A DNA stretch of 8,067 nt from a virus (Duplodnaviria; Heunggongvirae; Uroviricota; Caudoviricetes). This document shows positions 33 through 6,855 of this stretch, in pieces. The stretch lies in the IMG/VR virus record IMGVR_UViG_2703718825_000004; one strand, 5' to 3'. The notes under the pieces are model-generated. The model did not search any database. It saw only the letters and a program-made list of their open reading frames with translations, and was not told the DNA's origin. The translations under genes were made by a program, and so were the position numbers. Numbering within the stretch: the first letter of the stretch is position 1; every line of letters begins with the position of its first letter.

Positions 33-188
33 TTACTCCTCAGGTTCGTAAGCTGTGAAGACAGCGACCTCCGTCTGGCCGGTTCGGATTCGTACCTCGC
101 AGAGGTCTTTCCTCGTTACCAGTGCCGTCACTATGACGGTTAAACAGATGACGATCAGGGCGATTAACATCGCCTTTTGCTGCTTCAT
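33..188 (-). CDS. hokD: Hok/Gef-family type I membrane toxin (HokD/RelF-like), 51 aa
   Basis: Minus-strand translation MKQQKAMLIALIVICLTVIVTALVTRKDLCEVRIRTGQTEVAVFTAYEPEE matches, from memory, HokD/RelF and the Hok-family pattern (one TM helix, RKDLCEV...TGQTEVAVF...YE). AAGGAG Shine-Dalgarno lies about 9 nt upstream of the ATG at 188-186. Imperfect GC-rich hairpin in the 3' region (about 3-29). Sequence identity is recalled, not searched. Confidence 0.85.
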   Translation of the reverse strand: MKQQKAMLIALIVICLTVIVTALVTRKDLCEVRIRTGQTEVAVFTAYEPEE

Positions 189-245
189 AACCTGCTTCTC
201 CTTGCCTTTCGGCGCGTAAGAGGCTAACCTACGTTTGTGAAGCAT
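33..245 (-). CDS. Mok-like in-frame upstream reading frame overlapping hok (70 aa)
   Basis: Same frame as hok, starting at ATG 245-243 (MLHKRRLASYAPKGKEKQV then MKQQ...). This resembles the MokC/HokC arrangement in which mok is an N-terminally extended frame of hok. No convincing SD before this ATG; inference. Confidence 0.4.
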   Translation of the reverse strand: MLHKRRLASYAPKGKEKQVMKQQKAMLIALIVICLTVIVTALVTRKDLCEVRIRTGQTEVAVFTAYEPEE

Positions 246-431
246 AGATTGGGCCTCAGATTAATGTTAAGCGTCTTGCAGGACGCGTAATGTTAACTGG
301 GGCTTTTCTCTGTCTGCCTTACGGTGGCATGCCCGAGGCAGACAGCCTCAAGCACCCGCAGCAATTCTACTTAACTCTCGCTTTACAGCAAACCGTTTTG
401 CCCGATATGGGAATTCCCATACGGAATGAAT

Positions 432-4720: not shown

Positions 4721-5146
4721 TCAATGCACGACAACAGCATTACCAGGCTGACCACCACTGTTAGTCAGGGTGCCCCAGGCGATCGCCGCTGCGACAAAAT
4801 CATCCACATCTTTCACCAGCCGATCCCTCCGTTCGACGATCTCACGGTAATATTCAGAGCTGTGACTGCGCATACGGGCCACCAGCAGAGGCGGCATTGC
4901 CTTTTCGATCGCCGGTAACAGAGCCTGAATTTTTTCAACAGCATCAGGGGTGTCTTTATCCAGCCAACGGAAAATTTTCTGGGTATTACGAGCCAGGGCT
5001 TCCGGATGGCTGTCGTCGTACAGTTCCGGGAACGTCATCCCCAGCTCGAAATAAGTCCGGGCTATTTCAGCTGCAGGAACTTTCTCACCGTCCGGATAGG
5101 CCCAGGCATTGATCGCCATGCGGATGTGCTCATGTTTGATTTTCAT
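4721..5146 (-). CDS. ydaT: YdaT-family protein (CII-position regulator of Rac-type prophages), 141 aa
   Basis: Starts MKIKHEHI and ends VVVH, as Rac YdaT does from memory. ATG 5146-5144 overlaps the Cro-like stop (ATGA). Sits in the cII position between cro and O. Confidence 0.75.
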   Translation of the reverse strand: MKIKHEHIRMAINAWAYPDGEKVPAAEIARTYFELGMTFPELYDDSHPEALARNTQKIFRWLDKDTPDAVEKIQALLPAIEKAMPPLLVARMRSHSSEYYREIVERRDRLVKDVDDFVAAAIAWGTLTNSGGQPGNAVVVH

Positions 5147-5370
5147 GAATCCCCCTTTCCTTCGCCCTGAGTGGTATCCTTCTTTTTGTAAAGTTCTGGG
5201 TTCAAAGATAATTTCCCCTTGGAGTATGCAGCAGCTTCCGCAGCCCTCCCCTTCGGAACTATTTCACCAGGACGCTTACGCCACATGTAAATAGCTTCGC
5301 GGGTTATCCCATAAAAATCGGCAACCCTCTGAACAGAACCAAAAAACTGGACAAGTTCATCAACTCGCAT
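5143..5370 (-). CDS. Cro-like HTH regulator (DicC/YdaS family), 75 aa
   Basis: Divergent from the CI-like repressor. SD GGAGGT 4 nt upstream of ATG 5370. Pattern L..FGS...VA...GI...IY.W.....VP.GRA shared with DicC as recalled. Confidence 0.8.
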   Translation of the reverse strand: MRVDELVQFFGSVQRVADFYGITREAIYMWRKRPGEIVPKGRAAEAAAYSKGKLSLNPELYKKKDTTQGEGKGDS

Positions 5371-5464
5371 TTTACCTCCTAAATCTAAGTATTTTTAGAT
5401 TACAAGATAATTTTTTTTAGGTCAATGCAATCTAAAATAATTTATATTCAATTTGCAGGAGAAA
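5371..5464. promoter_or_regulatory. OR-like divergent promoter/operator region between the cro-like and cI-like genes
   Basis: 94-bp AT-rich intergenic region. Inverted repeat AATCTAAgtatttTTAGATT at 5382-5401, and a second inverted repeat TTTTAG-N11-CTAAAA at 5415-5437. -10-like TATATT at 5443-5448 for the cI-like gene; TTGACC-N17-TAATCT on the minus strand for the cro-like gene. Confidence 0.6.
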
Positions 5465-6112
5465 ATGATGGAAAGCCTTGGCATCAGGCTTAAGAGACTT
5501 AGAAAAGATAAGGGGCTGACCCAAGTAGAACTGGGTAAGCTTTCAGGCGTGACTGGGGTTACTATAGGGTACTGGGAGAAAGATCTAAACGAACCAGGTA
5601 GCAAAGCTCTAAGTAAGTTAGCCCAGGCATTAGGAACTACTGAGTCCTATCTCCTATATGGAGTATCGTCTCCTGAATTATCTTTTGTACAAAGTACCTC
5701 AGGCACCAAGATCCCCTACCTTTCGTGGGGTGAGGCGATTTCTTTCCTAATCTTAAAAGGAGAGAAAACAATGGGAAATGTCGATAGGATCACCACATTC
5801 TTTGATGTCGAGGAAGGTGATTTTGCCGTTTCAATGCCTGATGACACAATGCATAACCCATCAGGATCACCGAGTATCCCAGTTGGTGCTACTGTGATCC
5901 TAAGGCCAGGAGAAAGTTATAAAAATGGCAGCATCGTCGCTGTAATAGTTCCGGATCCGCTTAAAAATGAACCATCTATGACTATAAAGAAATTAGTTAT
6001 TGATGGGAAGCTTGTGTATTTAAGCCCTCTCAATCCACGCTATCAGTCATCCTTACTTACACCAGAGTGTAAAATTGTTGCCGTAGCAAAAGGTGTACAG
6101 TTCAACTTATAA
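5465..6112 (+). CDS. Lambda-CI-like prophage repressor (N-terminal HTH_XRE plus C-terminal LexA-like S24 peptidase domain)
   Basis: N-terminal LGIRLKRLRKDKGLTQVELGKLSGVTGVTIGYWEK is a classic XRE HTH. C-terminal region has the S24 Ser motif (AVSMPD) and Lys motif (TIKKLVIDGKLVYLSPLNPRY, close to lambda cI [20 protein letters not shown]). The ORF track starts at TTG 5453; ATG at 5465 or 5468 follows AGGAG at 5457-5461. Confidence 0.9.
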   Translation: MMESLGIRLKRLRKDKGLTQVELGKLSGVTGVTIGYWEKDLNEPGSKALSKLAQALGTTESYLLYGVSSPELSFVQSTSGTKIPYLSWGEAISFLILKGEKTMGNVDRITTFFDVEEGDFAVSMPDDTMHNPSGSPSIPVGATVILRPGESYKNGSIVAVIVPDPLKNEPSMTIKKLVIDGKLVYLSPLNPRYQSSLLTPECKIVAVAKGVQFNL

Positions 6113-6133
6113 CCCGCCACGTCCTTTACTTGA

Positions 6134-6159
6134 GGTCGGCAATGCCGACCTTTTTTTTT
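6134..6159 (+). terminator. Rho-independent terminator downstream of the cI-like gene
   Basis: Perfect 7-bp stem GGTCGGC / GCCGACC with 3-nt loop, followed by T9 (6151-6159), 22 nt after the stop codon. Confidence 0.75.
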
Positions 6160-6164
6160 AAATT

Positions 6165-6207
6165 AATCTAGATTTATCTTGACTGAAAAACTAAATACTT
6201 TTAGATT
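6165..6207 (+). promoter_or_regulatory. PL/PdicB-like promoter with operator-like palindromes
   Basis: TTGACT (6179-6184), 17-bp spacer, TAGATT (6202-6207). Perfect 10-bp palindrome AATCTAGATT at 6165-6174. CTAAATACTTTTAGATT at 6191-6207 is 15/17 identical to CTAAGTATTTTTAGATT at 5385-5401 in the OR-like region. Confidence 0.5.
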
Positions 6208-6387
6208 TATTACATACCACCCTACCTCGCCCCACAGAACGTCGGGCAATACCTCGAGTTACCCGGCAGTGGTCAGGGGTTAAGTAGCCAGCCCGAGGCG
6301 TATGAACATGACGGCGGGAACACTTTGTATAACAGCGCAGCAGGTTTTTAGTTCCGCGACCCGGCGTTAAGGGTAAATGAGGTCAAC

Positions 6388-6540
6388 ATGGATATGCTCA
6401 ATCTTGGCAACAATGAATCTCTGGTGTGCGGAGTATTCCCCAACCACGACGGCACGTTTACCGCGATGACGTATACCAGAAGTAAAACGTTTAAAACCGA
6501 AGCTGGCGCGCATCGCTGGTTAGCAAGAAACGCTAACTGA
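6388..6540 (+). CDS. Small protein, 50 aa (YdfA-like by position)
   Basis: ATG 6388 preceded by SD TGAGGT at 5-nt spacing. Translation MDMLNLGNNESLVCGVFPNHDGTFTAMTYTRSKTFKTEAGAHRWLARNAN. Below the ORF-track cutoff. The YdfA equivalence rests on gene order in the K-12 dicA-ydfABC-dicF-dicB operon and is not sequence-verified. Confidence 0.5.
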   Translation: MDMLNLGNNESLVCGVFPNHDGTFTAMTYTRSKTFKTEAGAHRWLARNAN

Positions 6541-6802
6541 TTAGCGCCAGTAAAAACAGGTTTCCACAGGTTAATTTACCCTGAAAAGTCAGGGCATAAC
6601 ACGAAAGCGCACGGCGAGATCCCTTTGCATATAAGTCTTGTCGTTAAATTTCTTCGACCGTGCGCTTCTGGTTGTGGCAATCCGCGAAATGGCGCGGCGG
6701 TAAGTATGGCGGGGTTATTCCTTCCCCCATTGAGGACACCGGGTTGTCAGGTTGACCATACGCTTAAGTGACAACCCCGCTGCAACGCCCTCTGTTATCA
6801 AT

Positions 6803-6855
6803 TTTCTGGTGACGTTTGGCGGTATCAGTTTTACTCCGTGACTGCTCTGCCGCCC
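6803..6855 (+). ncRNA. dicF: DicF small regulatory RNA (ftsZ-targeting sRNA of the Qin-type dicB operon)
   Basis: Sequence TTTCTGGTGACGTTTGGCGGTATCAGTTTTACTCCGTGACTGCTCTGCCGCCC matches the 53-nt DicF sequence as I recall it, followed by a T5 tail (6856-6860). It sits immediately upstream of dicB as in K-12. Confidence 0.85.

Follow-up and report, generated by a model that had tools for sequence, protein, structure and literature searches.

The inverted repeats that lie between the divergent repressor and cro genes of an Escherichia coli lambdoid prophage, and recur past the far end of the repressor gene, are very probably the operators of a P22-type lambdoid immunity switch, a reading that draws on direct observation of the sites themselves, their statistics, their conservation together with the repressor–cro pair, and the register of the promoters. 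The layout is textbook, and only the recognition sequence of this immunity group appears to be undescribed; in the library searched, the exact operator strings were found in no paper, and a search on e14, YmfK and operator returned no operator data.

Genomic context of the repressor–cro region

The window, meaning the whole 8,067-nucleotide stretch analysed here (IMG/VR record IMGVR_UViG_2703718825_000004), is the early region of an E. coli lambdoid prophage, in which positions 5100–6420 share 100% identity with bovine strain E2865 and 99.6% identity with O157:H7 strains; in E2865 and the O157:H7 strains alike, tRNA-Ser and mtfA adjoin the prophage. An identification as Sakai Sp10 at serU was dropped, Sp10 having been placed at the Rac attachment site (PMC2669165). 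Near the start of the window, a sok antisense RNA (183–357, minus strand, 114.9 bits) overlaps a 70-aa ORF (33–245, minus strand), the place where the O157:H7 copy has an annotated hokD.

The cro-like gene is homologous by alignment to P22 Cro and to the cro beside all related repressors; 3' of it lies a YdaT-type cII analogue, with O- and P-like replication genes also on the minus strand (Table 1). Across a spacer of 97 bp (5371–5467), the repressor gene is read in the opposite direction from a start codon whose choice agrees with RefSeq. The top PDB match of the repressor N-terminal domain is the P22 c2 N-terminal domain (E 3.6e-7, residues 4–67), while the best solved structure for its C-terminal domain is that of lambda cI (E 3.8e-5). 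Beyond a PL-like promoter on the plus strand follow a DUF1391 gene and then DicF, an sRNA recognised within the PL operon at 6804–6855 (plus strand, 76.7 bits); in the O157:H7 copy of the prophage this leftward operon also carries dicB. No RNA family was recovered from 5300–6600 by an Rfam search, whether run at gathering thresholds or with a limit of E≤1.

Table 1. Genes, candidate operators and predicted promoter elements of the immunity region, in window coordinates
Feature	Positions	Strand	Basis or remark
YdaT-type cII analogue	4721–5146	-	3' of cro
cro-like gene, 75 aa	5143–5370	-	Pfam P22_Cro, E 1.2e-9
O1 ATCTAAGTATTTTTAGAT	5383–5400	.	best operator; 1 mismatch to family consensus; core of the 5382–5401 repeat
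Predicted PR -10, TAATCT	5397–5402	-	overlaps O1 end; 17 bp from conserved -35; position as annotated P22 PR
O2 AGATAATTTTTTTTAGGT	5405–5422	.	weak; 9/14 specified positions match; assigned by position
Predicted PR -35, TTGACC	5420–5425	-	GGTCAA invariant in 13 aligned distant lineages
O3 ATCTAAAATAATTTATAT	5430–5447	.	1 mismatch to 20-bp O1 pattern; left half is the CTAAAA arm
Predicted PRM -10, TAAAAT	5433–5438	+	inside O3; homologous to P22 PRM -10 TAAGAT, OR3 positions 4–9
Shine-Dalgarno AGGAG of repressor gene	5457–5461	+	sequence
Repressor gene, 214 aa	5468–6112	+	Pfam HTH_3, E 1.9e-12; Peptidase_S24, E 5.3e-11
Intrinsic terminator 3' of repressor gene	6132–6152	+	9-pair stem, then T run
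OL2 TTTTAAATTAATCTAGAT	6156–6173	.	weak; only right half recognisable; 5 mismatches; assigned by position only
PL-like promoter, TTGACT-17 bp-TAGATT	6179–6207	+	promoter scan, 9/12 matches
OL1 AACTAAATACTTTTAGAT	6189–6206	.	far-side copy; 1 mismatch to O1 20-bp pattern; covers PL spacer and -10

The probable operator unit and its five-site map

The original prediction, that an OR-like operator set lies between the divergent cI-like and cro-like genes, holds, and the motif recurs at an OL-like position past the repressor gene. The inverted repeat AATCTAA-N6-TTAGATT reported at 5382–5401 was confirmed as AATCTAAGTATTTTTAGATT, in which two perfectly matching arms of 7 bp enclose a 6-bp spacer, as was the 17-bp core said to be shared across the repressor gene, with 15 of 17 bases identical between CTAAATACTTTTAGATT (6191–6207) and CTAAGTATTTTTAGATT (5385–5401); the same pair was recovered in a repeat search with 85% identity over 20 nt and 86% over 21 nt. 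Overlooked at that stage were a third strong copy, at 5429–5448 (O3), and a second, weak OL site 33 bp upstream of the far-side copy. The predicted operator unit is an 18-bp dyad with the family consensus ATCTAAG-N4-CTTAGAT, and the five putative sites are mapped as O1, O2 and O3 between cro and the repressor gene and as OL2 and OL1 after the repressor terminator. All three strong window sites have T instead of the consensus C at position 12, and are degenerate in comparison with the family consensus.

With sites of the same specificity flanking the repressor gene (O1 and OL1 are 806 bp apart) and a C-terminal domain homologous to the lambda cI oligomerisation domain, an OL–OR loop of ∼0.8 kb bridged by repressor oligomers is physically plausible, as in lambda; on this view, tight repression and the negative autoregulation at O3 would both depend on the loop. 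We regard this as rather unlikely here. Only one good OL site is present in this lineage, so that an octamer-type bridge would be weak.

The second inverted repeat of the original prediction, TTTTAG (5415–5420)-N11-CTAAAA (5432–5437), is present, but does not stand as a unit in its own right. Two different inverted repeats, the first with a 6-bp and the second with an 11-bp spacer, might be taken as operators in their own right, the repressor perhaps using one of them and Cro the other, and both repeats do exist in the sequence, with repressor and Cro under no obligation to share sites in every phage; against this, the N11 repeat consists exactly of the O2 right half (TTTTAGGT) and the O3 left half (ATCTAAAA), and any two palindromes that lie side by side will inevitably give rise to a repeat of this sort. 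At 5429–5448, furthermore, the complete 20-bp unit matches O1 with 1 mismatch, and most relatives have TTTTGGT here, the N11 repeat not being conserved whereas the 18-bp units are. Separate operators are very improbable.

Statistical support for the motif

When the 20-bp pattern was scanned across the 8067-bp window with ≤3 mismatches, three matches were found, at 5382 (0 mismatches), 5429 (1) and 6188 (1), where 0.34 would be expected; all three sit in the two regulatory gaps. Only 1 of 200 shuffles of the window reached three matches, and in 5000 dinucleotide shuffles of the AT-rich spacer two matches at ≤1 mismatch were never obtained. Across 19.3 kb of the same prophage in an O157:H7 genome, these three sites alone match. 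The copy in O157:H7 strain Gim1-1 (L011, 9283–9302) has an O1 that differs from that of the window only centrally (GTAT to GCAT), at a position probably not contacted by the repressor; that strain retains the contacted half-sites of O1, and likewise the bases of O3 and OL1 that match the pattern.

A spacer of 22% GC, in which -10-like TAGATT and TATATT may recur without any binding of repressor, invites the view that the repeats arose by chance in promoter DNA rich in A and T, the more so as TTAGAT, a half of the dyad, is itself a -10-like hexamer at PL and perhaps at PRM too. Composition-matched shuffles nevertheless fail to reproduce the pattern, and both halves of the dyad, including CTAA, which is not -10-like, are kept at fixed positions in lineages with flanking DNA that cannot be aligned, which leaves this explanation scarcely credible.

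Conservation across relatives

Relatives of the switch were drawn from genomes and viral contigs of Arsenophonus, Phlomobacter, Xenorhabdus and other E. coli phages, with repressors 32–51% identical to that of the window; the relatives at 40% identity were suspected to be K-12 e14, their neighbours being annotated as YmfL-like, but no K-12 gene names came back from the search made to confirm it. That related prophages might lack the motif had been named beforehand as evidence against the operator reading; across these repressors, in several genera, it is kept at the same positions. A cross-lineage scan of 15 loci, using a pattern from the window O1 alone at ≤3 mismatches, placed 51 of 57 matches within zones −115 to −20 upstream and 0 to +200 downstream of the repressor gene, which make up 8% of the sequence (binomial P ∼1e-48, a value that overstates independence because the loci are related). 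The enrichment in these zones stands despite the kinship. Two of the six matches outside the zones form an OL pair displaced by an insertion. In Xenorhabdus santafensis (L006, 2920–2974), the OL pair has its sites 35 bp apart and lies ∼800 bp past the repressor gene, as against ∼170 bp in X. hominickii, implying an insertion between the repressor gene and PL.

The common layout of the relatives comprises two good 18-bp dyads in the spacer, at a distance of 49 bp from each other, a weak dyad that precedes the second of them by 25 bp, and one or two further sites after the repressor gene; in the relatives and in P22, a good site lies 33–36 bp upstream of OL1. All relatives have a homologous cro upstream of the repressor gene, and the helix-turn-helix region of their repressors is nearly constant, reading GV(T/S)GVT(I/V)GYWEKDLNEP. 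Aligned by position in 13 distant lineages, O1 has invariant TAA and TTAGAT and a C at position 3 in 11 of the 13, with only 0.7–1.0 bits in the central 4 bp. At closer range, a 92%-identical phage has O1, O3 and OL1 unchanged and differs in adjacent untranslated bases.

Travelling with repressor and cro across the relatives, the motif is hardly that of another factor, be it the YdaT-type cII analogue or a host nucleoid protein, an explanation we consider extremely remote. The YdaT homologue of prophage CP-933P binds the inverted repeat TTGATT-N6-AATCAA, whose spacer is likewise 6 bp (PMC9986795), but the half-site sequence is different, and the YdaT motif gives 6 matches in the window, against 5.8 expected, none of them in the spacer; P22, with the same site layout, has c1 rather than a ydaT-type gene downstream of cro. 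Where cro meets the ydaT-like gene, 5136–5153 (TTGATTTTCATGAATCCC) has 2 mismatches to the published YdaT site, for a motif that is overall at chance level.

OL1 marks the exact end of the block that travels as one; the sequence from 6207 on is common to 3443 E. coli genomes with other immunity types. The leader from PL to the DUF1391 gene (6207–6373) matches 3443 of 5426 complete E. coli genomes, mostly at 80–95% identity. No N-like gene or nut site was recognised in 6207–6373. The fold of 6214–6390 does not improve on that of shuffled sequence (z = 0.57), and Rfam gave no match to the leader.

Register of sites and predicted promoters

O1 is homologous to P22 OR1 by position, and the predicted start site of PR, near 5390, would fall within it; the starts predicted on the plus strand are near 5444 or 5456 for PRM and near 6214 for PL. 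The proposed PR -10 matches at only three of six positions and escaped the promoter scan; the predicted PR -35 keeps the register of its P22 counterpart, TTGACT. Taken alone, O2 is indistinguishable from chance (4 mismatches; 5 to the 18-bp consensus); its place, 25 bp before O3 and overlapping the PR -35 by 3 bp, is exactly that of P22 OR2, and the relatives retain CTAA...TTTGGT there. The distance from O1 to O3 is 47 bp in the window, 49 bp in most relatives and 48 bp in P22. For PRM, TATATT at 5444–5449 is an alternative -10; the central bases AT of O3 are invariant in the relatives, whereas those of O1 vary freely, which fits a role for the O3 bases as part of the PRM -10. On the far side, the -35 is followed after 4 bp by OL1, whose end supplies the -10, an order kept in 13 relatives. 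A register of 6165–6184 for OL2 was rejected, 6156–6173 fitting the 33–36 bp spacing of the relatives and P22.

The gap between O1 and O2 (5401–5404) is 4 bp in the E. coli lineage, 6 bp in all other lineages and 5 bp in P22, giving start-to-start spacings of 22, 24 and 23 bp, respectively. The shorter gap shifts the predicted PR -10 into O1 by two bases and alters the helical phasing between the sites; the 22-bp spacing could weaken cooperativity.

Comparison with known switches

The description of the region as an OR/OL arrangement in the manner of lambda stood in so far as the sites flank the repressor gene; the closest model is P22 rather than lambda, as judged by the 18-bp dyads, their spacing and the promoter register. 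Shared with lambda are the divergent repressor and cro genes, the three-part OR, an OL over PL past the repressor gene, and a C-terminal domain homologous to that of lambda cI. Lambda operators, by contrast, are 17-bp sites of unrelated sequence, read by a helix-turn-helix of a type that differs from that of the window repressor; the OL–OR distance is 0.8 kb in the window and 2.3 kb in lambda, and no N-like gene is evident after PL.

Likeness to P22 extends from the repressor N-terminal domain (c2) and the cro family (P22_Cro) to 18-bp dyads with a 4-bp centre. The OR sites start at 1120, 1143 and 1168 in P22 (0, 23 and 48 bp) and at 5383, 5405 and 5430 in the window (0, 22 and 47 bp), with the PR -35, predicted in the window, overlapping the last 3 bp of the middle site in both. 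At PL, both have a -35, 4 bp, OL1, and a -10 ending 1 bp past OL1, and OL2 lies upstream of OL1 by 35 bp in P22 and 33 bp in the window. A weak middle site is also a feature of P22, whose OR2 has 4 mismatches to P22's own consensus. Differences include the absence of a recognisable OL3 in the window, P22 having OL1–3; a leader and Shine-Dalgarno sequence on the window repressor mRNA, where the P22 PRM start is 4 nt before the ATG; and the cII analogue, of YdaT type here.

Coliphage 21 immunity matches the P22 immC region. Operator identity with P22 and phage 21 was not found, the window sites having 3–4 mismatches to the P22 consensus; the family consensus, ATCTAAG-N4-CTTAGAT, differs from ATTTAAG-N4-CTTAAAT of P22 at position 3 (C for T) and position 16 (G for A). 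The P22 repressor contacts operator positions 2–7 and 12–17 and leaves out 8–11, and no longer binds specifically once position 3 has become C (PMC4267663). The recognition helix reads TGVTIGYWEK in the window and SNVAISQWER in P22, the two repressors being 31% identical overall. Given operator positions 3 and 16, the recognition helix and this level of identity, the prophage should be heteroimmune with P22 and phage 21, and the simplest reading of the sequences is that the immunity group is a heteroimmune relative of both.

Two further prophages of E. coli invite comparison. In common with Qin (DicA/DicC control of the dicB operon) and Rac (RacR/YdaS/YdaT), compared here at the level of genes, a prophage repressor would hold down a leftward operon with ydfA-type genes, DicF and dicB, and a YdaT-type gene follows cro. 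Unlike DicA or RacR, the window repressor is a full-length cI-like protein with an S24-type domain, and strains carrying racR have only the flanks of the window region in common with it.

Proposed mechanism

For the P22-type switch, we infer the binding protein, the order of affinities, cooperativity, PRM activation and the transcription start sites. By homology with P22, repressor dimers are expected to bind the 18-bp dyads ATCTAAG-N4-CTTAGAT, with the helix-turn-helix reading the outer 6–7 bp of each half and the central 4 bp free of direct contact. O1 would be the strongest site, covering the PR -10 and start site, and the weak O2, over the PR -35, would probably be filled cooperatively, such that O1 and O2 together may silence cro, the ydaT-like cII analogue and the replication genes. 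O3, positioned over the predicted PRM core, would cap repressor synthesis at high concentration. Past the repressor gene, OL1 with the weak OL2 would cover PL and keep the leftward operon silent, including the DUF1391 gene, DicF and, in the O157:H7 copy, dicB. A Cro of the P22_Cro family is expected on the same sites with the opposite preference.

Self-cleavage residues of the repressor

The S24 peptidase fold is present in the repressor, as indicated by the Peptidase_S24 and lambda cI C-terminal domain matches, but residues associated with self-cleavage are altered in an alignment with lambda cI and with P22 c2, the latter sequence taken from its record. The Ser nucleophile is absent, with DDTM (Thr127, 5846–5848) in place of GDSM in P22 and GNSM in lambda, and so is the Ala-Gly site, with WGEA-I (Ala90-Ile91, 5735–5740) in place of VSA-G in P22 and VQA-G in lambda; the lysine general base is kept, the IKKL lysines K174 and K175 being unchanged across the alignment. 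With Thr for Ser and Ala-Ile for Ala-Gly, the repressor probably escapes RecA-stimulated cleavage.

All relatives of ≥45% identity are without Ala-Gly, while those of ≤41% identity keep VQAG; most of the latter also keep the G-D/K-S-M motif, of which a pattern search found none in one relative (L083). A tentative proposal, possible though not one we would favour, is that the clade of at least 45% identity, in E. coli, Arsenophonus and Xenorhabdus, shares both substitutions and has an SOS-blind P22-type switch with a complete OR/OL under selection. If so, the switch would be thrown by something other than SOS, for example an anti-repressor or the balance of Cro and YdaT; alternatively, its main use would be to keep the PL operon of a common EHEC prophage, with DicF and dicB, permanently locked.

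Implications

The understanding of lambdoid switches is left unchanged by this analysis, which puts forward a definite recognition sequence of 18 bp and maps five sites for an immunity group found in 474 of 5426 complete E. coli genomes (match to ≥80% of the region), including O157:H7, and also in insect and nematode symbionts. The pair of repressor and operator would constitute a natural specificity variant of that of P22, at a position known to control P22 specificity. The map predicts which prophages would be mutually immune and marks the promoter through which the DicF- and dicB-encoding PL operon would be kept silent.
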